A DNA stretch of 64,000 bases from an uncultured SAR86 cluster bacterium. GTDB taxonomy: Bacteria > Pseudomonadota > Gammaproteobacteria > Magnimaribacterales > D2472. This document shows positions 2,913 through 58,082 of the stretch, piece after piece. Location of the stretch: contig CACEJU010000003.1 of the NCBI GenBank assembly GCA_902559885.1, forward strand, positions 33,542 to 97,541, in the 5' to 3' direction. Positions within the stretch are counted from its first letter, which is position 1. The number at the start of each line of letters is the position of its first letter. The notes below the pieces were generated by a model. The model made no database searches and was not told the origin of the DNA. It was given only the letters and a program-made list of their open reading frames with translations. Made by a program: the position numbers and the translations under genes.

Positions 2913-4892
2913 ATGCCAATCAAAAATCTTAGATACCTATACTTACTTTTAGCTTTTTATTCACTAAGTATCTATAGTCAAATTGATACCGGTCATTCAA
3001 TAGTCTCAATACATAAGATATCCGAACAAACAGATAAAAATTTTATTGGAATCAAAGTAGATCTTGATGATGGTTGGCATACATATTGGAAAAATCCTGG
3101 TGATGCCGGTGGGCCAATTATTGTTAAAATTTTATCTCCTGAAAAGGTAAATATTAAAAAAATTTACTTTCCTCCACCGCAACTAATACCTTATGAACCA
3201 TTAATGACTTATGGATATAAGGAAGAGGTATTATTTCCAATTGAGATCGAGAGTACGCATCTCATTGATGAAGATACTGTATTTGATTTTGAAGTTAATT
3301 TATTAATTTGTGAAGATGTTTGTATACCAGAATCTGCGGTATTTTCGCAAAAATATGATGAATTTAAAGCATCAGATGAAACTACTGAATGGTTAAAAAC
3401 TATTCCCGACATAACGTACCCTGTTCTAACTTTTATTAATAATAAAAACAATACTTTAGAGATGAAATTTTCAGGTATTGATGAAATATCTGATGTTTAT
3501 TTTTTTCCAGAAAATAAAAATATTTTTAACTACGCTGCCAAGCAAAAACTTAGCTATGATGGTAAGAATTATCTACTAGAAATTAATATTGATGAGATAT
3601 CAAATATTAATAGTCAAACCTTGCTAACTGGTTTATTAAAAATTAATGACGGTTATTACAAAGTAAAATCAAGTCCTAAAATTTTAGAAACTCAAGTATC
3701 TAACAGTATTTTGAAAATGCTTTTATTTGCATTTATTGGTGGTCTAATTCTTAATCTAATGCCATGTGTTTTTCCTGTAATTTCTCTAAAAGTATTAAGC
3801 ATGGTAAAGATGGGTGGAGAATCTAAATCAAAGATAATTTCTCATTCTCTAATTTTTTCAATAGGTGTCGTAATTTCTTTTTTAGCTATTGCAGCATTGG
3901 TAACATATCTTAGATCAACGGGTGAAATGATAGGTTGGGGATTTCAACTCCAATCACCATATGTAGTTTCAATTTTGTCGTCACTAATGATAATTATTGG
4001 TTTTGTACTTCTTTTAGATATAAATTTGGGTCTTTCATTAACCAGATTGGAAAGCTCAACAAATAATTCCTCTTTATTTTCAAGTTTTTCTACAGGAGTT
4101 TTAGCTGTTATTGTTGCTTCACCATGTACAGCCCCATTTATGGGTGCTGCTATTGGCTATGCATTATTAGAATCTAGTTCATCTACGTACCCTATTTTCT
4201 TAAGTTTAAGTATAGGATTTGCTTTTCCATACATCCTTTTAGCTTTAAAGCCATCATTAATTCAAAAATTACCAAAACCAGGCAATTGGATGAATGTATT
4301 TAAGGAATTTATGGCCTTTCCTATGTTCGCTACAGCAATATGGTTACTTTGGGTATTCTCTCTTCAAGTGAGCACTAATAGCTTAATTGAATTGATATTT
4401 ATATGGTTTTTGATTGGAATTCTTTTTTGGTTAACCTCTAAAACAAATAATCAAATTATCAAATTAGTATCTATACTGATAGTTCTTATATCAATATTTG
4501 CTCAAACTATAAATATTAATAATGAGATTACTAAAATAAGCTCTGATCAGTCTAAATCTAATGATTATGTTTTATGGAATCAAACAATAGAAGATGATTT
4601 ATTGTCTAACAATAAATCCTTTTTTATTAATTACACAGCGGCATGGTGTATTACTTGTCAGGCAAATGAAAAAATAGCGCTATCTTCTCTAAAAGTTCAA
4701 AATTATTTCAAATCACAAGATATTACTTATTTAAAAGCTGATTGGACAAATAAAAGTCCTGAAATACTCGAAAGTCTTAAAAAATATGGCAGAACTGGTG
4801 TGCCATTATATATTTATTGGGAACCATCCATGAGCGAACCTCGAGTTCTTCCGGCAATTCTAACTGAGAAAATAATTTTTGATTATCTTTAG
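2913..4892 (+). CDS. dsbD: thiol:disulfide interchange protein DsbD (protein-disulfide reductase)
   Basis: 659 aa. Signal peptide, N-terminal periplasmic domain with a Cys pair (ICEDVCIPE), a CcdA-like multi-TM core (NLMPCVFPV, ASPCTAPF), and a C-terminal thioredoxin domain with WCITC. Confidence 0.85.
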   Translation: MPIKNLRYLYLLLAFYSLSIYSQIDTGHSIVSIHKISEQTDKNFIGIKVDLDDGWHTYWKNPGDAGGPIIVKILSPEKVNIKKIYFPPPQLIPYEPLMTYGYKEEVLFPIEIESTHLIDEDTVFDFEVNLLICEDVCIPESAVFSQKYDEFKASDETTEWLKTIPDITYPVLTFINNKNNTLEMKFSGIDEISDVYFFPENKNIFNYAAKQKLSYDGKNYLLEINIDEISNINSQTLLTGLLKINDGYYKVKSSPKILETQVSNSILKMLLFAFIGGLILNLMPCVFPVISLKVLSMVKMGGESKSKIISHSLIFSIGVVISFLAIAALVTYLRSTGEMIGWGFQLQSPYVVSILSSLMIIIGFVLLLDINLGLSLTRLESSTNNSSLFSSFSTGVLAVIVASPCTAPFMGAAIGYALLESSSSTYPIFLSLSIGFAFPYILLALKPSLIQKLPKPGNWMNVFKEFMAFPMFATAIWLLWVFSLQVSTNSLIELIFIWFLIGILFWLTSKTNNQIIKLVSILIVLISIFAQTININNEITKISSDQSKSNDYVLWNQTIEDDLLSNNKSFFINYTAAWCITCQANEKIALSSLKVQNYFKSQDITYLKADWTNKSPEILESLKKYGRTGVPLYIYWEPSMSEPRVLPAILTEKIIFDYL

Positions 4893-17863: not shown

Positions 17864-19135
17864 TCAATCAAATTGCTTATTGGCACTAGAAAAAAACAAG
17901 TAAAATAAACCGCCAAAAAATAAAACTATTGTAGAGATATTAAAAATTAAGAACCATGAATTAGTATTCTCTAAAATAAATCCTGCAGCTAGTGGACTAA
18001 AAACAGCTGCTATCATGCCTATACTTCCAGCAATACCAAAAAGGTTTCCTGTATAATTTGGTCCAATATCTGCATGATTAACACCAAAACCACCTGCAGC
18101 CATGCCAATACAAAAATTAATAAGGCAAAGTAATATTAAAGTGATCTCAACTGAGGTTTGATAGGGTATTAGATAGATAAGAACTCCAGCACCAAAAAAT
18201 CCAATAGAATTAAATAGCTTTCTTGCCACTATTACTTTTAGCCCTTGTTTTATTAATGTATCAACTATGAAACCACCAATAAGAAGAGAAATAACACCGA
18301 TAACTGCGGGCAAAATAATAAGTATTAAAAATGTATCAGATTCTAAGCTTATTCCTAGGCCCCCAATAGATATATCAGAGTTAACATATTTGGGCATATA
18401 GGATATGAAGGTAAACAGAACCCAATTATTGCAAAAAGTTGCTACTGTTATTGCTAAGAAAGGTAAATTAGATATCAGATTTTTGAATGGAACTTTTTTT
18501 GCATTTTCACTTGAAGGAGCTTCATTTAAAATTTTTGATAATTCATAATCAGATATTTTCTTATTTCCGCTTGGCATTGAGCTAAAACCTTTAAACCAAA
18601 AAAATGACCAGATAATTCCTAATAACCCAAATAAATAAAAAACAACTTCCCATGAGTACATAGTTATTATTATTGTAGTTAGAGCAAAACCAAAAACTGT
18701 TCCTACTGAAATTCCACTATTAGTTATGGCAATTACTCTTGTTCTTTCTGTAAATGGAATCCAGCGTGCATAAAGTGAATGTATTGATGGAAAAGCCACC
18801 CCTTCACCCAATCCAAGTAATACTCTAATTAAAAAAATTGCGAAAAAACCTTGATAGGCAAAAATCGGGGTAAGGAATGTAAATAAAGACCAAGCCAATA
18901 CACCAAAACCTAAAACATATTTACCGCCATACTTGTCTGCTAAATAGCCACCAAGAATCATGGTAAACATATAACCAAAATAAAAAGATGAGAAAACTAT
19001 GCCGACTTGAGCTTCACTCCAGCCAAACTGCTGTTGCATGGGAATGATTGCAACAGAAATATTTACCCTGTCAATATAGCAAATAAATATCGCCAAGAAA
19101 GACATGAAAACAAGTTTGAATCTTTCTGGAATCAT
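17864..19135 (-). CDS. MFS transporter (anion:cation symporter/ACS-like)
   Basis: 423 aa, 12 TM. CYIDRVNISVAI and GYLADKYGGK motifs. Lies 29 nt downstream of argH on the same strand. Confidence 0.65.
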   Translation of the reverse strand: MIPERFKLVFMSFLAIFICYIDRVNISVAIIPMQQQFGWSEAQVGIVFSSFYFGYMFTMILGGYLADKYGGKYVLGFGVLAWSLFTFLTPIFAYQGFFAIFLIRVLLGLGEGVAFPSIHSLYARWIPFTERTRVIAITNSGISVGTVFGFALTTIIITMYSWEVVFYLFGLLGIIWSFFWFKGFSSMPSGNKKISDYELSKILNEAPSSENAKKVPFKNLISNLPFLAITVATFCNNWVLFTFISYMPKYVNSDISIGGLGISLESDTFLILIILPAVIGVISLLIGGFIVDTLIKQGLKVIVARKLFNSIGFFGAGVLIYLIPYQTSVEITLILLCLINFCIGMAAGGFGVNHADIGPNYTGNLFGIAGSIGMIAAVFSPLAAGFILENTNSWFLIFNISTIVLFFGGLFYLFFSSANKQFD

Positions 19136-19164: not shown

Positions 19165-20460
19165 TTAGCTTAATATTAATTTTTTTAATTCAATAAATCT
19201 ACTTTCAATATCTTCAATAGCCAAATTAAAAGGAGATCCATATGAAAAGTTTTCAAATGAATCATTAGTTGAAACATCAACCTCCTTATTTTTAATCATA
19301 TGGTATGCATCTCTGAAGGGTATACCAGTAGAAACAAGACCGTATACTTTATTGGTCATCATCATTTCTTTATCAATGGCAAATTCAGATTTAATTTTAT
19401 TAATTTTTATTGTCTTAATTAAAGCTAGAAATATATCTAAAGTCTGAACTGATACCTGGAATGCTTCAATCAAAGACTTTTTAGATAATTGCAGATCCCT
19501 ATGATATCCACTTGGCAAAGAAAGCAATGTTTCAAGTTCGCTATAACAACCACAAAGTATTGAGTAATTAGCTCTTAGAATCTCAACTACATCAGGATTA
19601 TTTTTATTTGGCATGATCGATGAGCCTGTTTTAAAATCATCTCCTATATCCAAATAATCAAACTCTTGTGAAAGATATATACTTAGATCCCACGAAAATT
19701 TTCTTATATCTAACAAACATTGTTTCAACGCAGAAATAATCTGTAATTCATACTTACCTCTGCTATTTTGTGTATAAAGACTGTTAATCTGAATTCTTTC
19801 AAAACCAAGCTCTTTTGCAGAGAGCTCTCTATCAAGTGGAAGATTAACCCCATAGCCTGCTGCACCACCCAAGGGATTTGAGTTTATCCATTTTATAGTC
19901 TGATCAATTATTAAAATATTATCATTGAATGATTCAGCAAATGATCCAAACCATAGACCCCATGTCGATGGAGTGGCTTTTTGAATATGAGTGTATCCAG
20001 GAACTTTTATAGATGAAGTTTTCTTTGCTTTTTGTATTAAAACACCATTAATTTTTAAGTTTATTTTATTAATTTTTTTTAACATCTCCTTGGAATAAAG
20101 TCTCAAGGCCACTTGAACCTGATCATTTCTGCTTCTACCTGTATGAACCTTAGCTCCAACGTCACCAAGATGTTTGGTTAAATATATTTCTATTGCGGAA
20201 TGCCCGTCTTCATATTTGCTATCAAGCTTAAATTTTTTGTTTTTAAAATCCTTTGATAATAAGTTTAATTGCTTGTTTAGATCTGTATATTCAGCATGGC
20301 TGATAATATTAATTTTTTTTAAGCCTTTTATATGAGCTTTAGTAGCTTTAATGTCGTAAAGAAATAATTCATTATCCAGTTTTACATCATCCTTAGATAA
20401 AAAATTTGTAATATTTTCAGATGTAAAGGTCTTTTTATTTTTCCATAATTTTTTATTCAT
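19165..20460 (-). CDS. argH: argininosuccinate lyase
   Basis: 431 aa. HTGRSRNDQV and the GSSIMPNKNNPD fumarate-lyase signature. Confidence 0.9.
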   Translation of the reverse strand: MNKKLWKNKKTFTSENITNFLSKDDVKLDNELFLYDIKATKAHIKGLKKINIISHAEYTDLNKQLNLLSKDFKNKKFKLDSKYEDGHSAIEIYLTKHLGDVGAKVHTGRSRNDQVQVALRLYSKEMLKKINKINLKINGVLIQKAKKTSSIKVPGYTHIQKATPSTWGLWFGSFAESFNDNILIIDQTIKWINSNPLGGAAGYGVNLPLDRELSAKELGFERIQINSLYTQNSRGKYELQIISALKQCLLDIRKFSWDLSIYLSQEFDYLDIGDDFKTGSSIMPNKNNPDVVEILRANYSILCGCYSELETLLSLPSGYHRDLQLSKKSLIEAFQVSVQTLDIFLALIKTIKINKIKSEFAIDKEMMMTNKVYGLVSTGIPFRDAYHMIKNKEVDVSTNDSFENFSYGSPFNLAIEDIESRFIELKKLILS

Positions 20461-21385
20461 TATTGATTCCTGTTAATTCATTTAAACCTAGAAGGTAATT
20501 TGTGTTTTGTATTGCTTGAGTTGCTGCACCTTTTAAGAGATTATCAAGAACGCAAATTACTCTTAGTGAATTGCTTGAACTGTCGATGCAAAAACCACCT
20601 ATATGGACTTCGGATTTTCCCGCTATATTGCTGATATAGGGAACTTCTTTACTAATCTTTATGAGATCTTGATTATTATAAAATATCTTATAAATTTCTA
20701 TTATTTCTTCTATTTGCATTTCTTTATTAAGATAAATTTGGCTTGTTATATTAATGCCCCTAAAAAAATCACCTACATGAGGTACAAAAGAAATATTTTC
20801 ATGGCAATGATGTCTTACTTCTTTTTGATGAAGATGGTCGTTTAAGCTATAAGGCAATATATTATCCTTTAAAGTATTTGGATCATTTCTTTCGTTTGGA
20901 GTTGAACCAGCACCACTATATCCTGAAATACCAAAGCAACTTGCTTGTTTAATAAAATTTTTAATTGGTTCAATTGCAAATTGAATAGCTGATGCATAAC
21001 ATCCTGGATTGCTTATATATTTTATATTTGATGGTTTGCTGATCTCTGGAATTCTGTAATACCAGTTGCTATCAAATCTTTGATCTGAGCTTAAATCAAT
21101 TAGCATCAACTTTGGATACATTTTTTTAAGATTATCAATGTATTCAAAAGACTTATTATTAGGAAGTGCGAGTATTGCTAAATCAATGTCTTCTAGGTCA
21201 TCGAAACATGTTTCTGAGTATGATAAAGAAATATTTCTATTGTAAATAGAAACTTTTTTACCAGCCATTGTTGATGAAAATACTTTTTTAAGCTCAATGT
21301 GATCATGATGGTTTAATAATGAAATAATTTCTTTGCCGACAAAACCCCTGCCACCAAATATTACTATTGAGAATTTTTTATTCAT
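20453..21385 (-). CDS. argC: N-acetyl-gamma-glutamyl-phosphate reductase
   Basis: NPGCYA active-site Cys motif and an N-terminal Rossmann FGGRGFVGKE. I place the start at MNKKFSIV (21385), which overlaps the argA/B stop by 8 nt. The track extends 15 codons further into argA/B. Confidence 0.85.
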   Translation of the reverse strand: MNKKFSIVIFGGRGFVGKEIISLLNHHDHIELKKVFSSTMAGKKVSIYNRNISLSYSETCFDDLEDIDLAILALPNNKSFEYIDNLKKMYPKLMLIDLSSDQRFDSNWYYRIPEISKPSNIKYISNPGCYASAIQFAIEPIKNFIKQASCFGISGYSGAGSTPNERNDPNTLKDNILPYSLNDHLHQKEVRHHCHENISFVPHVGDFFRGINITSQIYLNKEMQIEEIIEIYKIFYNNQDLIKISKEVPYISNIAGKSEVHIGGFCIDSSSNSLRVICVLDNLLKGAATQAIQNTNYLLGLNELTGINNE

Positions 21386-22688
21386 AAGATATCGATACCT
21401 CTTTAGAGTCCGCATAATTAATGCACTCAATTATTTCATCAGAATTTTTGACACCTATCCAAAAAATATTCCATTTATCAGTTTTATGAAATCCATCAGA
21501 AATTTGTTTGTAGAATCCATTGATATCGTTACCGTGTCTTGATCTCCAAAAAACTTTAGAATTCTCTTTAATCATTTTTTTCCAAATAGAGTTTCCTAAG
21601 CCTTCACCCCTAGCATTGGGTGTTACAGCAAATTTATCCATATATGGGATATTTTTATGATTATCTAGCAAAATAATTGCCCTCTTGCATGAACTTATAA
21701 ATAGTTTTTTATCATGAATTGAATTCATATATTGATTAGACACTTTTCCATTAAAAGAATTTTCTAATATAAATTTGATTGTATTGCTGTAATCCTCTGA
21801 AACGTACTCAAATGTATCAATCTGGTGACCTTTTTTTACAAGGGTTCCTTTACCAGAATCTGAGAATAATTCTTTGGGTAAATCTATAGGTGATGTGATT
21901 GAGCATGAGCTATCTGACGGAAGATTTTCTAAAAGAATTTTAATCTGTTCAATTTTTAACTTCATACCCGAATGAAGCCAGTCTTTATTTATTAGGTTAT
22001 CAAAATCATCCTTTATACTAATATTTGAGATGATCTTATTATTTTCATCAAGCACTCCTCCTGTGGCAGTTAAAAAAATAACTTTGTCAGGTTGTACTAT
22101 TTTTGCTAGTTCTAAGACAGCAATATCTGCATTAATATTAACTATTTGATTAGAGCCAAGTGCTCCTAATGATGCAATTACTGGGATCTTATTATTATTT
22201 ATAGAATTTTTAATTTCTTGAATATTTAATCCTTTGATCTCTCCAACATACCCATATTTTTTATCCAATAATTCACAATCAAAATAACCATCGGCGTAAC
22301 CAATCGCTTGTACATTCTTTTTGTTTAGCGCATTTACTATAAGATTATTTGTGTCTTTGAATGCTTTTATTGCTTCATCTAAAACATCTTCATTAGTAAC
22401 TCTAATACCGTCAATAAATTCAAATTCAATATTTTTTTCATTTAATGTGCTTGTAAGTTTTGGTCCGCATCCATGAACTATTATTGGGCACAGGCCTACC
22501 TCATGAAGAAAGCTAATTGAGTCGGTCAAATTCTCAAGATCATCAGTGACTATCGCTCCACCGACTTTAATAACCGCAAACCTAAAATCATCAGATTCGA
22601 ATCTCTGTAGATATTTTTTAATTTCTCTTTCGCTGGTAAATCCATCTAATAGCCTGAATAGAGATTTTTTACTTAGATCTTTAGTCAT
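21378..22688 (-). CDS. argA/B: bifunctional N-acetylglutamate synthase/kinase (vertebrate-like NAGS/K, ArgA/B type)
   Basis: 436 aa. Amino-acid-kinase domain (AVIKVGGAIV, IIVHGCGPKL, NVNAD), then KLKIEQIKILLENLP..SITSP..LPKELFSDSGKGTLV, then a GNAT domain (YMDKFAVTPNARGEGLG..FWRSRHGN..KWNIFWIG). From memory, this is collinear with the Xanthomonas/Maricaulis bifunctional enzyme rather than with E. coli ArgA. Confidence 0.75.
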   Translation of the reverse strand: MTKDLSKKSLFRLLDGFTSEREIKKYLQRFESDDFRFAVIKVGGAIVTDDLENLTDSISFLHEVGLCPIIVHGCGPKLTSTLNEKNIEFEFIDGIRVTNEDVLDEAIKAFKDTNNLIVNALNKKNVQAIGYADGYFDCELLDKKYGYVGEIKGLNIQEIKNSINNNKIPVIASLGALGSNQIVNINADIAVLELAKIVQPDKVIFLTATGGVLDENNKIISNISIKDDFDNLINKDWLHSGMKLKIEQIKILLENLPSDSSCSITSPIDLPKELFSDSGKGTLVKKGHQIDTFEYVSEDYSNTIKFILENSFNGKVSNQYMNSIHDKKLFISSCKRAIILLDNHKNIPYMDKFAVTPNARGEGLGNSIWKKMIKENSKVFWRSRHGNDINGFYKQISDGFHKTDKWNIFWIGVKNSDEIIECINYADSKEVSISYE

Positions 22689-22690
22689 AG

Positions 22691-23878
22691 TTATTTATTA
22701 ATTTCAGACCATGTTTTTGTGCTTAATCCATAAAGCTTTATAAAACCTTGCGACTCTTCTATTGACCATGAAGCTGATTGAGCATAAGTTGCATCCTTGC
22801 TATTTAATATATGTCTTGAATCTATTTTTACAGCATCGGCTTTTCCAGCATTAAGTTCTAAAGTAACCTTTCCAGTGACTTTTGATTGCGTATCCTTCAA
22901 AAAAGTTTCAAGATTTTTTCTAAGTGGATCAAAATAAAAACCTTGATACAAAAGTTCAACCCATTTATTACCAACAAACTTCTTAAATTCATTCTGTTTT
23001 GCTGTAAGAACTGCTTCCTCTAAAGCTTGATGTGCTATTTTTAATAATGATATACCAGGGGCTTCAAATACAATTCTTCCCTTAATCCCAATGATGGTGT
23101 CATTGATAACAATTTCTCTACCAATTCCGTATTTTCCGCCGATTTTATTTAGATTTTTAACTGCATCTGATGTATTTATATTAACTCCATTTATAGACTT
23201 GATGTTGCCCTTGTTAAATTCAATAACAATTTTTTTTGCTCTTTTTAGCTGTTTCTCCGGTGGATTGCATAGAACATATGTTTCGTCAGATGGCTCATCA
23301 AATGAATCAATCTCTGAGCCAGATATGGTTACTCCTAATAAATTCTCATTAACGCTATATTTCTTACTTATGTTAGGAACCTTAAATCCCTTCTTCTTTA
23401 AAAAAGATAATTCATGATCTCTTATATTTTTATATTCTTTCTGAATTTCTCTAATTGGTGTAATTATTTTGAAATTGCCATTTGCATGTATTGATAAATC
23501 AAATCTAACCTGATCATTTCCCATACCAGTACATCCATGAGAAATATAATTAGTTTTTAATTTTTTACATAAATTTACCATCTCTTGCACAATCAAATAT
23601 CTATCTGAGCAAAGTATTGGATATTTGTTTTGGTATACAGAATCAGACCATAACAATGGAGTAACAATAGATTTGCAAAGCTCTTTTTCAACATTCTTAG
23701 AAACATGCTTCTTTGCTCCAAGCTGATAGGCTTTCTTTTCTATTATTTTTTCTTGTTTCTGTGAAATCCCGCCAGAGTTGATAAAGATTGTATATACGTC
23801 AAATCCCTTTTCAATTAAGTATGGAACACAAAAACTAGTATCTAATCCTCCTGAAAATGCTAAAACAATTTTTTTCAT
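22691..23878 (-). CDS. argG: argininosuccinate synthase
   Basis: 395 aa. N-terminal AFSGGLDTS ATP-PPase motif and HGCTGMGNDQVRF. Confidence 0.9.
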   Translation of the reverse strand: MKKIVLAFSGGLDTSFCVPYLIEKGFDVYTIFINSGGISQKQEKIIEKKAYQLGAKKHVSKNVEKELCKSIVTPLLWSDSVYQNKYPILCSDRYLIVQEMVNLCKKLKTNYISHGCTGMGNDQVRFDLSIHANGNFKIITPIREIQKEYKNIRDHELSFLKKKGFKVPNISKKYSVNENLLGVTISGSEIDSFDEPSDETYVLCNPPEKQLKRAKKIVIEFNKGNIKSINGVNINTSDAVKNLNKIGGKYGIGREIVINDTIIGIKGRIVFEAPGISLLKIAHQALEEAVLTAKQNEFKKFVGNKWVELLYQGFYFDPLRKNLETFLKDTQSKVTGKVTLELNAGKADAVKIDSRHILNSKDATYAQSASWSIEESQGFIKLYGLSTKTWSEINK

Positions 23879-23886
23879 ATTTTTTC

Positions 23887-24882
23887 CTATTTAATTAAAT
23901 TTGTCATAATTGATTTTTGGACATGAATTCTGTTTGCAGCCTCTTTAATAGCTACGCAATTTTCTGAATCCATTACAGCATCTGTTGCTTTTATATTTCT
24001 TCTTAATGGCAAGCAATGACTGAACAAAGCATTATTTGTGTAGCTCATTTTTTTTTCATCAACAATGAAATGCTTATATTGATCCCTAATTTCTTTTTCT
24101 TGATCTACTTTGTTAAAGTAATTTATTGATCCCCAGCTTTTTGCATAGACAATATCAGCACCCTTATAGCCATATTCAATATCATGAGTGATCTCAAAGT
24201 CTTTATTATTTTGTGAACAATTATTTTTTGCAGATCCTATAAAACTATCATGAAGTAAGTATTCATTATTTGGACAAAGCATCTTAATATTCATACCAAA
24301 CTTGCTAGCTATTAGTAAAGATGAGTTTGCTACAGCTGTATTCAGTGGCTTAGGGTGATATGTCCATGTTAGAAGATAGTTTTTGCCTTCCAATGACCCT
24401 AACTCTTCTTGAAGAGTTAATATATGTGCTAGCTCCTGACATGGATGCGTGATTGTTTCCATGTTAATAACAGGCACTTTTGAGTATTTAGCAAAACTAT
24501 TAATAACATAATCAGAGATATCATCATTTATATCTTTAAATTTTGGAAATGATCTGACTGCTATAAGATCACAATATTCTGATAAAACTTGAGCAACCTC
24601 TATGATATGTTCCTCATTCTCTTTATCCATAACTGTATTTAATTTAAATTCTATTGGCCATGCATCTTTTCCAGGATTTAAAACTACTACACAGCCACCT
24701 AACTCTTGAACTCCAAGTTCAAAACTTGTTTTTGTTCTCATAGAGGGATTAAAAAAAACTAAGCCAACAGATTTATTCTTAAGACTATCTTGAAATCTAT
24801 TTGTTTTAAGATATTTCGAATAATCCAAAATATCTTGTAATTCCTCTTTAGTCCAATCAACTGTCGATAAAAAATGTTTCAT
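23887..24882 (-). CDS. argF': N-acetylornithine carbamoyltransferase (AOTCase, argF' type)
   Basis: 331 aa. FFNPSMRTKTSFE carbamoyl-phosphate motif, GKDAWPIEFKLNTVMD, ITHPCQELAH, HCLPLRRN..ATDAVMDS. Near-collinear with the Xanthomonas AOTCase as I remember it. It includes the Glu of WPIEF that is associated with acetyl- rather than succinyl-ornithine specificity. Confidence 0.75.
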   Translation of the reverse strand: MKHFLSTVDWTKEELQDILDYSKYLKTNRFQDSLKNKSVGLVFFNPSMRTKTSFELGVQELGGCVVVLNPGKDAWPIEFKLNTVMDKENEEHIIEVAQVLSEYCDLIAVRSFPKFKDINDDISDYVINSFAKYSKVPVINMETITHPCQELAHILTLQEELGSLEGKNYLLTWTYHPKPLNTAVANSSLLIASKFGMNIKMLCPNNEYLLHDSFIGSAKNNCSQNNKDFEITHDIEYGYKGADIVYAKSWGSINYFNKVDQEKEIRDQYKHFIVDEKKMSYTNNALFSHCLPLRRNIKATDAVMDSENCVAIKEAANRIHVQKSIMTNLIK

Positions 24883-24899
24883 TTATTTACTCCTATAAC

Positions 24900-24924
24900 A
24901 AAAAAACCCAGCGCAAGCTGGGTC
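24900..24924 (-). terminator. intrinsic terminator hairpin 17 nt upstream of the argF' start (attenuator candidate, and also the only terminator after the P450 gene)
   Basis: Minus strand: ACCCAGC-UUGC-GCUGGGU followed by a U run. The AGGAG Shine-Dalgarno of argF' lies between the U run and the ATG. Confidence 0.7.
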
Positions 24925-24947
24925 TTTTTACACACGACAAGAACCAG

Positions 24948-24992
24948 CTACAAAGCTGTTCCCCGTCTGTTTTGTAAACTTAAGTTATTCAT
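24948..24992 (-). promoter_or_regulatory. candidate 14-codon leader peptide ORF with tandem Arg codons (MNNLSLQNRRGTAL*)
   Basis: ATG AAT AAC TTA AGT TTA CAA AAC AGA CGG GGA ACA GCT TTG TAG on the minus strand. It is preceded by an extended -10 TGCTATAAT (plus 25001-25009). It is followed by alternative pairing segments that overlap its stop codon. Confidence 0.4.
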
Positions 24993-25041
24993 TTCGAAGA
25001 ATTATAGCAACAAAAAAAGATTTTGAAAGCACCAATTGAAA

Positions 25042-26394
25042 CTATTTCAATTTAATGGGTAAATCTTGTATTGCATGAACAAAATTATTTGGAGCTACTT
25101 TCCAAGACCCATTTAATTGATAATTAGGAAACCTTTCTAAAAATTGTGAAAAGAATTCGTTTAATTGCATTAAAGCAATAGGTTTACCTAAACATGTATG
25201 CCTTCCAAAACCAAATGCTAGATGTTTGTCAGCATTTTTTCTTGTTATATCAAAAATGTCAGGATTTTTAAATATCTCTGGGTCTCTATTGGCTGCACCG
25301 TACCATAAAGCAATTTTTTCAAATGGCCCTATTTCTTGTCCTCTTATATTAGATTCAACTAAGCTAGTTCTCCTCATATGGATAACAGGAGATACGCATC
25401 TAACTGTTTCATGCAAGAAATTTTGAAAATGATCGCTATGACTTAATAGAAGATTTTTTTGGTCAGGAAAGTCTGCTAATAGTTTCACACCGCCGCTCAT
25501 TGTATTTCTAGTAGTATCATTGCCAGCAAATATAATAAGCAGCCATGAACCATCTAAAAATTCTTGGGATAGCTCCTCACCCTCTATCTTTGCATTAGCA
25601 ATTGCACTCAATAGATCATTTGTAGGATTCTTCCTTTTTTCTTCTAGTATATGCCTACCATAATCAAACATTTCATCAATCATGTTGTTGAACATCTCAA
25701 CAAGTGATGGATCGGGAGTCGAATCACTAATACCATCATTCTTTTGTTTAATTTGTTCCAAGGTAAAATATTGAGCAAGCTCTAAAAATTCCATCCACTC
25801 AACTAGTTTCTGTCTATCACTTTCTGGTATACCTAAAATCTCAGACAAAGTATAAATTGGTAATTGTTGAGAAATTTCTTTAACTAAATTAAATTCATTT
25901 AGTTTTTCAGCGCTATCAAGAAGTTCTTTTACCTTTATAGCTACTTTAGTCTGCAGATTAGCTACAAAATTAGGTTTAAAAAAAGGCATATGCTCTTTTC
26001 TTAGATTTAAGTGCATCTCACCATCAAGATTAAGCATATGATCTATAGTAGTTTTAAATAATTTTGGGTGTCTGTTTTCTTCTGAGCCAAAAGTTAATAA
26101 ATTACCGCTAGCATATTGTGAAGAAAATATTTTTGGGTTCATTGATACATATTTAATATCTTCATATTTAGTCAAAACCCAATAACCAGGTTCATCATCA
26201 AAAGGCATCGATTCATGGTAAAAAATAGGAGCATTTTCCCTGAGATCTTTATAAAAATCATAAGGTTGTCCATTAGTGAAAATATCCAAATCATTTAAGG
26301 ATTTATCAGCAGCATAAGAATACTTAGAATTATATGCAGGTGAGTTTAATTTATTATTTAAGACTTTATCAGATAAGACAAACCCTTTAGGCAT
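25042..26394 (-). CDS. cytochrome P450 monooxygenase
   Basis: 450 aa. Heme-thiolate loop FGFGRHTCLGKPIA, I-helix FAGNDTT, and an ExxR-region (HETVR). Confidence 0.85.
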   Translation of the reverse strand: MPKGFVLSDKVLNNKLNSPAYNSKYSYAADKSLNDLDIFTNGQPYDFYKDLRENAPIFYHESMPFDDEPGYWVLTKYEDIKYVSMNPKIFSSQYASGNLLTFGSEENRHPKLFKTTIDHMLNLDGEMHLNLRKEHMPFFKPNFVANLQTKVAIKVKELLDSAEKLNEFNLVKEISQQLPIYTLSEILGIPESDRQKLVEWMEFLELAQYFTLEQIKQKNDGISDSTPDPSLVEMFNNMIDEMFDYGRHILEEKRKNPTNDLLSAIANAKIEGEELSQEFLDGSWLLIIFAGNDTTRNTMSGGVKLLADFPDQKNLLLSHSDHFQNFLHETVRCVSPVIHMRRTSLVESNIRGQEIGPFEKIALWYGAANRDPEIFKNPDIFDITRKNADKHLAFGFGRHTCLGKPIALMQLNEFFSQFLERFPNYQLNGSWKVAPNNFVHAIQDLPIKLK

Positions 26395-26415: not shown

Positions 26416-26500
26416 TGGTAGGCATGGAGGGAATCGAACCCCCACGGCTTGCGCCACTAGGTTCTAAGCCTAGCGTGTCTACCAGTTCCACCACATGCCC
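26416..26500 (-). tRNA. tRNA-Leu (anticodon TAG)
   Basis: 85 nt, class II. Acceptor GGGCATG/CATGCCT (G1-U72), anticodon stem CTAGG/CCTAG with loop CTTAGAA, a long variable arm, T-loop TTCGATT, and an encoded CCA. Confidence 0.85.
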
Positions 26501-58007: not shown

Positions 58008-58082
58008 GCCTTCTTAGTTAAATGGATATAACAAATCCCTCCTAAGGATTAGTTGCAGGTTCGATTCCTGCAGAGGGCACCA
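58008..58082 (+). tRNA. tRNA-Arg (anticodon CCT)
   Basis: 75-nt cloverleaf. Acceptor GCCTTCT/AGAGGGC, anticodon stem AATCC/GGATT with loop CTCCTAA, T-loop TTCGATT, and an encoded CCA. Confidence 0.85.

Follow-up and report, generated by a model that had tools for sequence, protein, structure and literature searches.

A candidate arginine-codon attenuator in the leader of the argF' operon of SAR86 and related bacteria

The stretch of DNA considered here, referred to as the window, comprises 64,000 nt from an uncultured SAR86 cluster bacterium. On its minus strand, a spacer of 159 nt (24883-25041) separates the stop codon of a P450 gene from the ATG of argF', which encodes N-acetylornithine carbamoyltransferase and is followed by argG, a bifunctional argA/B, argC and argH. 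The spacer carries a promoter, a short leader open reading frame (ORF) with two adjacent Arg codons, and RNA segments that can pair in alternative ways, one of the pairings being an intrinsic terminator. This leader is probably a ribosome-mediated, arginine-specific attenuator of the argF'-argG-argA/B-argC-argH operon, with a leaderless leader ORF and the rare codon CGG as its sensitive site. We give this reading a probability of about 0.75. It is based on three alternative hairpins, on the recurrence of the arrangement and its linkage to argF' in a comparative sample, on the conservation of the ORF, on the rarity of CGG, and on co-variation of the pairing segments.

The argF' leader and its operon

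The elements of the locus, in the order of transcription, are as follows.

25042-26394, minus strand: P450 gene, with the stop codon TAG at 25042-25044
25023..25028, minus strand: -35 element TTTCAA, 16 nt upstream of the -10 box (TTTACA in relatives)
25001..25009, minus strand: extended -10 box TGCTATAAT, ending 8 nt before the leader ATG
24948..24992, minus strand: leader ORF of 14 codons plus TAG, MNNLSLQNRRGTAL-stop, as read from the sequence
24963..24968, minus strand: putative regulatory Arg codons AGA-CGG (codons 9-10)
24954..24970, minus strand: segment 1, the 5' strand of hairpin 1:2 (RNAfold), which holds the Arg codons and CAGCU
24932..24949, minus strand: segment 2, AGCUGGUUCUUGUCGUGU, which overlaps the stop codon (U-AGCUGG)
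24916..24926, minus strand: segment 3, AAGACCCAGCU, the 5' arm of the terminator, which pairs with segment 2 or 4
24900..24929, minus strand: intrinsic terminator 3:4, AAAAAGACCCAGC-UUGC-GCUGGGUUUUUUU, -17.2 kcal/mol
24890..24894, minus strand: Shine-Dalgarno sequence AGGAG of argF'
23887..24882, minus strand: argF', first gene of the controlled operon (NF003384, 519 bits, E = 5e-156)
22691-23878, minus strand: argG
21378-22688, minus strand: bifunctional argA/B
20453-21430, minus strand: argC
19165-20460, minus strand: argH

The leader ORF reads ATG AAT AAC TTA AGT TTA CAA AAC AGA CGG GGA ACA GCT TTG TAG. The core boxes of the four segments are CAGCU (24958-24954), AGCUGG (24949-24944), CCAGCU (24921-24916) and GCUGGGU (24912-24906). 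Segment 1 mimics segment 3 (AGAC...CAGCU against AGACCCAGCU). In segment 2 the sequence of the terminator's 3' arm occurs a second time, and its partner can be segment 1 or, alternatively, segment 3. The terminator itself has the core GACCCAGC-UUGC-GCUGGGU followed by a U run, which ends at 24900 and leaves 17 nt to the argF' ATG (24882). Because this gap is so short, a promoter downstream of the terminator is ruled out. The terminator follows the leader ORF and precedes the first structural gene of the operon. A terminator scan flags the palindromic hairpin, on the plus strand only. The motif ACCCAGC-N4-GCTGGGT occurs once in the 64 kb, with 0.03 occurrences expected, and a repeat element was rejected as its origin on the grounds of this uniqueness.

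A first-pass annotation had described the spacer as a trpL-like leader in front of the arginine operon. Its coordinates for the spacer, the -10 box, the ORF, the Arg codons, the segments, the U run and the AGGAG match the minus strand base for base, and the flanking genes, from P450 to argH, are those that it named. It had also expected CGG to be rare. This codon accounts for 2 of the 491 Arg codons (0.4%; 0.12 per 1000 codons) in the 39 long ORFs of the window, which has a GC content of 31.5%, and by this count it is the rarest Arg codon of the genome. The sole tRNA-Arg gene in the window (58008-58082, plus strand) has the anticodon CCT and reads AGG; no tRNA for the rare CGG codon of the leader lies within the 64 kb.

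The genes argG, argA/B, argC and argH (19165..23878, minus strand) are tightly packed or overlapping on one strand and are presumably co-transcribed. A gene for a transporter of the major facilitator superfamily (MFS; 17864-19135, minus strand) lies 29 nt beyond argH in the same orientation and could be co-transcribed with the operon. The best NCBIfam matches of its product are anion:cation symporter-type subfamilies, all below the cut-off.

Conservation of the leader in three orders

The ArgF' homologs assign the window to the marine SAR86 clade, with identities of about 68% to Kangiella and about 62% to Xanthomonadales. Loci for comparison were gathered through the ArgF' protein alone, from 80 species-representative genomes and 80 metagenome contigs, so the sample of 160 loci is unbiased toward leader structure. 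Four of them are incomplete upstream, which leaves 156 usable loci. About 117 of these possess three elements upstream of argF': first a short ORF containing Arg codons, next a GCYGGG box on or close to the stop codon of this ORF, and finally a terminator of the form ACCCRGC-loop-GCYGGGU-U(n). The carriers are 48 SAR86 loci with leaders of the type found in the window (class I), 62 Xanthomonadales and about 7 Kangiellaceae. The terminator stem ACCCAGC/GCUGGGU is identical in SAR86, Kangiella and most Xanthomonadales. In the SAR86 and Xanthomonadales leaders and in locus L011, the GCYGGG box is at most 12 nt away from the stop codon of the leader, and in several Kangiellaceae loci the ORF extends further past the box. 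Among the usable loci, those of SAR92 and a few others have no such leader, and 32 SAR86 loci carry a different one (class II, see below).

The 48 complete class I loci of SAR86 comprise 39 distinct leader sequences. The ORF has 14 codons in 37 of the 39 and ends with TAG in 38. Arg occupies codon 10 in 38 of them, and codons 9 and 10 are both Arg in most. The reading frame of the ORF is open in all 39, the other two frames in only 2 and 6. The peptide, by comparison, is free to vary: there are 35 different peptides, and identity at codons 2-8 is only 52%. Conservation in SAR86 thus concerns the frame, the length and the position of Arg and not the peptide. The terminator-to-ATG gap of the class I relatives ranges from 13 to 34 nt.

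The gene upstream of the leader varies in SAR86 class I between tRNA-Leu, unrelated ORFs and P450, and the leader is always found with argF'. This bears on the simplest alternative, namely that a chance ORF happens to lie beside an ordinary terminator of the P450 gene and that the arg operon is expressed by leaky read-through only. Short ORFs are indeed common, and in the window no further terminator is obvious for the P450 gene. However, promoter, ORF and terminator are retained together in relatives with tRNA-Leu or unrelated genes upstream. Adjacent Arg codons within a stretch of 13 codons are expected by chance in about 1-3% of cases, yet they recur across clades, and only frame 0 is open in all 39 leaders. 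The idea of a chance ORF at an upstream-gene terminator is contradicted by the varied upstream genes and the open frame and is scarcely credible. The conservation argues that this leader is a feature far beyond chance.

Upstream of the P450 gene, the window carries one further feature of note for the history of the locus.

26416-26500, minus strand: tRNA-Leu(tag)

In many SAR86 relatives (L003-L005, L007, L010, L084, L090-L092, L094, L097, L098 and L101), tRNA-Leu directly abuts the leader promoter. Because relatives have this arrangement, the P450 gene appears to be an insertion between tRNA-Leu and the leader in the lineage of the window. A P450 gene also precedes the leader in L081 and L082. 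In the window, no terminator belonging to this gene precedes the putative attenuator.

The promoter is conserved as well. In the window it reads TTTCAA-16 nt-(TGC)TATAAT, and the class I consensus is TTTACA-16 nt-TATACT/TATAAT. TTTACA with a 16-nt spacer occupies the -35 position in 33 of the 38 class I relatives. The distance from the -10 box to the leader ATG is 7 nt in 16 relatives, 8 nt in 17, 9 nt in four and 10 nt in one, and hence 7 or 8 nt in 33 of the 38. A consensus promoter scan missed this promoter, as TTTCAA matches only three of the six positions of TTGACA; it was accepted on account of its extended -10 box and its conservation. Given the nearly fixed distance between the -10 box and the ATG, together with the mapped 5' end of a Xanthomonas counterpart discussed below, we infer that transcription starts at the leader AUG or 1-2 nt before it. 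The mRNA would thus be leaderless, which would explain why the leader ORF has no Shine-Dalgarno sequence. The first-pass annotation had listed a nearly leaderless mRNA as a caveat, and both lines of evidence now speak for it.

At the level of codons, CGG is present in 35 of the 39 SAR86 leaders. Other SAR86 sub-clades have AGG-AGA or CGG-AGA, and across the clades the Arg runs are AGA-CGG, AGG-AGA, CGG-AGA, CGA-CGT-CGC and CGC-GCG-CGC-CGA. The ORF ahead of this biosynthetic operon is enriched in codons for the end product in three orders, with synonymous replacement among them. As the identity of the amino acid stays constant while its codons differ between clades, codons rather than a nucleotide motif are favoured as the conserved entity.

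The same comparison weakens the view that the ORF is incidental and that antitermination results from the binding of arginine or of a protein to the leader RNA, as with TRAP, PyrR or riboswitches. Alternative hairpins would suit any antitermination mechanism, and the SAR86 leaders show good conservation of both AGACGGG and GCUGGG. However, the nucleotides of the Arg run change between clades while the amino acid is kept, no conserved structure resembling a ligand pocket is present, and no Rfam riboswitch or leader matches the sequence. Nor does such binding explain the open frame and the fixed length of the ORF. Control by a bound ligand or protein is therefore very improbable.

Outside SAR86, the leaders are longer. 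Those of Kangiellaceae contain ..QQRRRSRI.. or ..IRRRRRS.., and those of the 62 Xanthomonadales loci have about 33 codons with the pattern ..ARMASGMTSRARRP(E)xxxxAG-stop. The latter are situated about 100-260 nt upstream of argF' (L019-L080, L142-L158). In the 53 distinct Xanthomonadales nucleotide sequences, M-T-S-R-A-R-R is invariant, the next residue is Pro in 52, and all variation within this core is synonymous (ACC/ACG/ACT, CGC/CGT, GCG/GCC/GCT). In Xanthomonadales, the constraint at the peptide level exceeds what hunger for Arg codons would require and hints at a function of the nascent peptide.

This constraint supports another explanation, by which the nascent leader peptide, and not the charging of tRNA, senses free arginine in the ribosome tunnel. 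At high arginine the ribosome would be kept on segment 2, at its stop codon or close by, and termination would be imposed in this way. Such a bacterial leader would be analogous to the fungal arginine attenuator peptide (AAP) or to TnaC. In a general form, an Arg peptide made from a leaderless mRNA with an intrinsic terminator (M-T-S-R-A-R-R-P, or ..RR-x4-stop in SAR86) would sense free arginine and serve as the arginine regulator of Xanthomonadales, Kangiellaceae and SAR86. The location of the stop codon on or beside segment 2, or of an open frame there in several Kangiellaceae, agrees with this model and fits a codon model equally well. Against it, the peptide of the window class has only 14 residues, the first eight of which are unconserved (35 peptides). 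The codons of residues 11-14 lie in segment 1 and the loop, so that constraints on the RNA explain these residues. The choice of the rarest codon, CGG, points instead to decoding limited by tRNA. Sensing by the nascent peptide is accordingly considered unlikely, both for the window and as a general arginine regulator of the three groups.

The class II leaders of 32 SAR86 loci belong to other subclades. They occur in L015, L017, L018, L012, L029 and L016, about 200 nt before an argF' that starts at position 3001 (845 in L018), and in about 26 metagenome loci, among them L123, L135, L137, L139, L145 and L151. A promoter TTCTTGCATACT is followed after 8-9 nt by an ORF with some 40 codons, which ends in ..RRRRSI-stop, ..KRRRSI-stop, ..QKLRSL-stop or ..RFRSV-stop. 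Their conserved nucleotides are CTTAGATC-N-TTTAA, and a short hairpin, CACCA-N-AATGGTG or CCCCCAGTAATGGCGTGG, stands right before the argF' ATG, usually without a U-tract terminator. Class II may therefore represent translational rather than transcriptional control. In L119 and L125 the ORF and the promoter have been lost, but the hairpin and the motif CTTAGAT persist.

Alternative pairings and the proposed switch

The complete spacer folds with a minimum free energy (MFE) of -44.4 kcal/mol (z = -3.8), and none of 200 shuffled sequences folds as well. Hairpin 1:2, as predicted by RNAfold, has about 16 bp and -17.6 kcal/mol, and its 5' strand contains the Arg codons. The first-pass annotation had noticed this hairpin but understated it, with a length of 5 bp and without the Arg codons. 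It had also recognised the 6-bp core of the antiterminator 2:3 and likewise understated the pairing: AGCUGG.UCUU pairs with AAGA.CCAGCU in 6 + 4 bp around one U.C mismatch, at -12.0 kcal/mol. Pairing 2:3 and terminator 3:4 are mutually exclusive, as both use the 5' arm of the terminator.

Both upstream pairings are conserved in the alignment of the 39 SAR86 leaders. Pairing 2:3 can form in 85.6% of the cells of the alignment, versus 16-52% in controls with slid sequences, and shows one compensatory CG/UA pair at 29:8. Pairing 1:2 can form in 72% of the cells, versus 37-59% in the slid controls, and six of its pairs are changed on both sides. Conservation and co-variation thus back an antiterminator that competes for the terminator arm.

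A ribosome covers about 15 nt from its P site, as is known from toeprinting, and this footprint was used to mask the RNA in folding. Without a ribosome, the free RNA forms 1:2 together with 3:4 in 39 of 39 leaders. With the mask at the stop codon, segment 2 is covered and the terminator forms in 39 of 39. With CGG in the A site, the mask covers segment 1 and leaves segment 2 free, and in a nascent RNA that ends with segment 3 the antiterminator 2:3 then forms, again in 39 of 39. In the same nascent RNA without a ribosome, segment 3 stays free in 28 of the 39, the window included. The masked folding suggested by the first-pass annotation therefore gives the antiterminator in nascent RNA with a stalled ribosome, whereas at equilibrium the full-length RNA keeps the terminator of the window.

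From these elements, the following sequence of events can be proposed. Transcription would begin at the leader AUG or 1-2 nt before it, and a ribosome would translate the 14 codons while the RNA polymerase proceeds. If charged tRNA-Arg were scarce, the ribosome would stall when its A site reaches AGA or, in particular, the very rare CGG, and its footprint would lie over segment 1. Segment 2 (AGCUGGUUCUU), left free, could then pair with segment 3 (AAGACCCAGCU) as the latter emerges. Once 2:3 has formed, the terminator would come too late, and the operon would be transcribed. If arginine were plentiful, the ribosome would reach the UAG and occlude segment 2, so that 3:4 would form and transcription would stop 17 nt before argF'. 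In the absence of a ribosome, for instance on transcripts reading through from P450, 1:2 and 3:4 would both form, and termination would be the default. Translation of the leader, the stalling and the response to arginine are, like the start of transcription, what we infer from the layout of the locus.

Several observations weigh against this proposal. The window leader has only two regulatory codons, and the leaders of L010, L092, L117, L118 and L128 have one; in these single-Arg variants the codon kept is CGG. The sequence AGACGGG also belongs to helix 1:2, and its conservation within SAR86 could therefore be partly structural. The terminator stem is invariant in the 39 SAR86 leaders and so gives no co-variation signal. 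Finally, in the full-length RNA at equilibrium with segment 1 masked, the terminator prevails in 32 of the 39 leaders, including the window (-17.4 versus -12.0 kcal/mol); with a footprint at the Arg codons, the fold flips to 2:3 in only 7 of the 39, and the window is not among them.

The last of these points rules out a purely thermodynamic switch. As the terminator remains the equilibrium MFE structure even with segment 1 masked, the antiterminator would have to act kinetically. The textbook trp model also assumes kinetic switching. Since the terminator stem is invariant within SAR86, its co-variation was assessed across orders. There, CCCGGC/GCCGGG terminators are accompanied by a segment 2 with GCCGGG (L035, L036, L045, L046, L080) or with the wobble-compatible GCUGGG, and GCCGGG in segment 2 is never combined with CCCAGC. 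Segments 2, 3 and 4 thus co-vary between the CCCAGC and CCCGGC lineages.

As for the number of Arg codons, one SAR86 subclade (L010, L114, L116-L118) has leaders with a single Arg (..NLRGQLI-stop) or with CGG-AGA and is a natural series on how many such codons are needed. Its first gene starts 28-29 nt past the terminator with ATGGATGATATT / ATGAATGA.., and the ArgF' N-terminus is a few residues longer than that of the window.

Taken together, the trpL-like attenuator put forward by the first-pass annotation is strongly supported, by comparison of sequences rather than by experiment. That annotation had named, as a finding that would speak against it, loss of the ORF or its Arg codons from relatives that keep the hairpin. 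On the contrary, the ORF, the Arg codons, the stop codon and the pairings are all conserved.

Xoo5 and other known systems

The Xanthomonas counterpart of the leader is an RNA that is already on record. The small RNA (sRNA) Xoo5 (Rfam RF02242) was cloned from Xanthomonas oryzae PXO99, where Northern blots show bands of about 130 and 100 nt from the interval between PXO_00354 and PXO_00353 (PMC3039613). According to the tables of that paper, PXO_00353 is N-acetylornithine carbamoyltransferase and PXO_00352 is argininosuccinate synthase (PMC3039613). Xoo5 was reported as an orphan sRNA without a function; arginine or a leader is nowhere named, and attenuation appears only in a generic remark on clones from 5' untranslated regions (UTRs) and in a remark on virulence (Liang et al. 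2011, PMC3039613).

RF02242 matches the leader region of three loci of the sample (L043:2740-2864, L074:2726-2849 and L022:2747-2870) at 97-124 bits. It coincides with the leader-peptide ORF of argF' and stops just short of the terminator hairpin. The 5' end of Xoo5 determined by rapid amplification of cDNA ends (5'-RACE) is position 1 of the model, and the leader AUG occupies positions 3-5 and hence begins 2 nt later. RNAs of about 130 and 100 nt that start 2 nt before a leader AUG are as expected of a terminated leader. RF02242, which is curated as a stand-alone sRNA of Xanthomonadaceae ("Gene; sRNA"), is therefore probably mis-typed and should be a cis-regulatory leader.

The leader of the window itself gives no match to the Xoo5 model, either in 24600-25300 at E <= 10 or in the whole window at the gathering score (50 bits). 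The two differ considerably, as Xoo5 has an ORF of about 33 codons with an invariant core (..GMTSRARRP..AG-stop), a GC-rich RNA of about 124 nt and extra helices. Homology is nevertheless proposed despite the failed model score, because both occupy the same locus and share the core elements: an ORF with Arg codons at the 5' end, a GCUGGG box at the stop codon and the terminator ACCCAGC/GCUGGGU. By these features, Xoo5 is almost certainly a homologous element, of which the window leader would be a divergent, miniaturised relative.

The classification of Xoo5 in Rfam raises the question of whether the element is a stand-alone gene for a trans-acting sRNA, with a constitutive terminator and an irrelevant ORF. 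The entry as "Gene; sRNA" and the detection of Xoo5 in two distinct bands (about 130 and 100 nt) agree with this, and terminated leaders can act in trans, rnTrpL being a reported precedent. On the other hand, a constitutive terminator 17 nt from argF', with no promoter downstream, would mean that the operon is never expressed. Furthermore, the linkage to argF' persists across three orders, and an sRNA gene gives no role to the conserved frame, the Arg codons, the stop codon's position or the 2:3 complementarity. A mere sRNA gene is thus quite improbable; a role in trans in addition to attenuation may exist.

Other searches of Rfam returned little. At E <= 10, the spacer yields terminator-only look-alikes (rimP at 24 bits and Leu_leader at 18.1 bits, the threshold of the latter being 50), and the Trp, His and Thr leader families are not among these matches. 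At the gathering score, the matches in the whole window are limited to three tRNAs.

Attenuation by leader peptides is itself a known mechanism and is textbook knowledge for Trp, His, Leu, Thr, Ile/Val and Phe. The comparative genomics of attenuation by Vitreschak, Gelfand and Lyubetsky reportedly covers Trp, His, Leu, Ile/Val, Thr and Phe only. For the biosynthesis of arginine, the control that is taught is repression by ArgR. Full-text literature searches, to which most subscription journals were closed so that a prior description is possible, found no bacterial arginine attenuator; the term "arginine attenuator" led only to the upstream ORF (uORF) of the fungal AAP. The first-pass annotation had called the arrangement possibly undescribed, and this is correct insofar as no such attenuator was found, with the reservation that the Xanthomonas homolog has been in Rfam as Xoo5 without a function. 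As far as could be established, the new aspects are the specificity for arginine, a leaderless design that uses only one or two codons, a rare one among them, and the breadth across SAR86, Kangiellaceae and Xanthomonadales.

The leader suggests that attenuation at Arg codons, instead of or besides ArgR, acts on the argF'-type operon across a large gammaproteobacterial branch. This branch includes the abundant ocean clade SAR86 as well as Kangiella, Xanthomonas, Stenotrophomonas and Lysobacter, and thus carries ecological and agricultural weight. The proposal offers a concrete candidate function for the orphan RNA Xoo5. It would also add a naturally occurring leaderless leader peptide, of interest for how transcription and translation are coupled without a Shine-Dalgarno sequence, and a minimal sensor of one or two codons, for which a streamlined genome would draw on its rarest codon. 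As some relatives can be cultivated, the attenuator idea is open to direct tests.

The known control of arginine biosynthesis by ArgR concerns the same pathway and follows the same logic, in that plentiful arginine leads to repression. Unlike an RNA leader, ArgR is a protein that binds to DNA and acts on ARG boxes. Its regulons have been reconstructed in only six gammaproteobacterial groups (PMC5343134). A tblastn search with ArgR of Escherichia coli found no match in the 64-kb window (best E = 1.4), a result that is uninformative for the rest of the genome.

The closest experimental precedent for Arg codons as a sensor, which lends support to the attenuator reading, comes from the speF leader of Salmonella. 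In its orf34, two consecutive Arg codons are enough to sense arginine, by a pausing of ribosomes that selects between alternative mRNA structures (PMC6386406). Unlike the window leader, orf34 controls an ornithine decarboxylase, has 34 codons and has an ordinary 5' UTR (Ben-Zvi et al. 2019, PMC6386406). It works via Rho-dependent termination, unmasking of the ribosome-binding site and sensitivity to RNase G, whereas the window leader has an intrinsic terminator.

The fungal AAP, encoded by the uORF of arg-2/CPA1, resembles the window leader in that a short upstream ORF makes a gene of arginine biosynthesis responsive to arginine. It differs in being eukaryotic and translational and in sensing through the sequence of the peptide, whereas the design in the window would be based on codons and coupled to the termination of transcription. 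The AAP thus bears only on the alternative of nascent-peptide sensing.

A close analogy is with trpL of E. coli, a leader of 14 codons with two adjacent regulatory codons near its 3' end, and more generally with hisL, leuL, thrL, ilvL and pheL. As in these leaders, an ORF with codons for the end product precedes a biosynthetic operon. As in trpL, four segments of the RNA can form 1:2, the antiterminator 2:3 or the intrinsic terminator 3:4, and the stop codon adjoins segment 2. Unlike all of them, the window leader would sense arginine, with the rarest Arg codon of the genome as one of its two codons, and its ORF has no Shine-Dalgarno sequence and probably stands at the 5' end of the transcript. 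It also shows no similarity to this group in sequence or covariance model.

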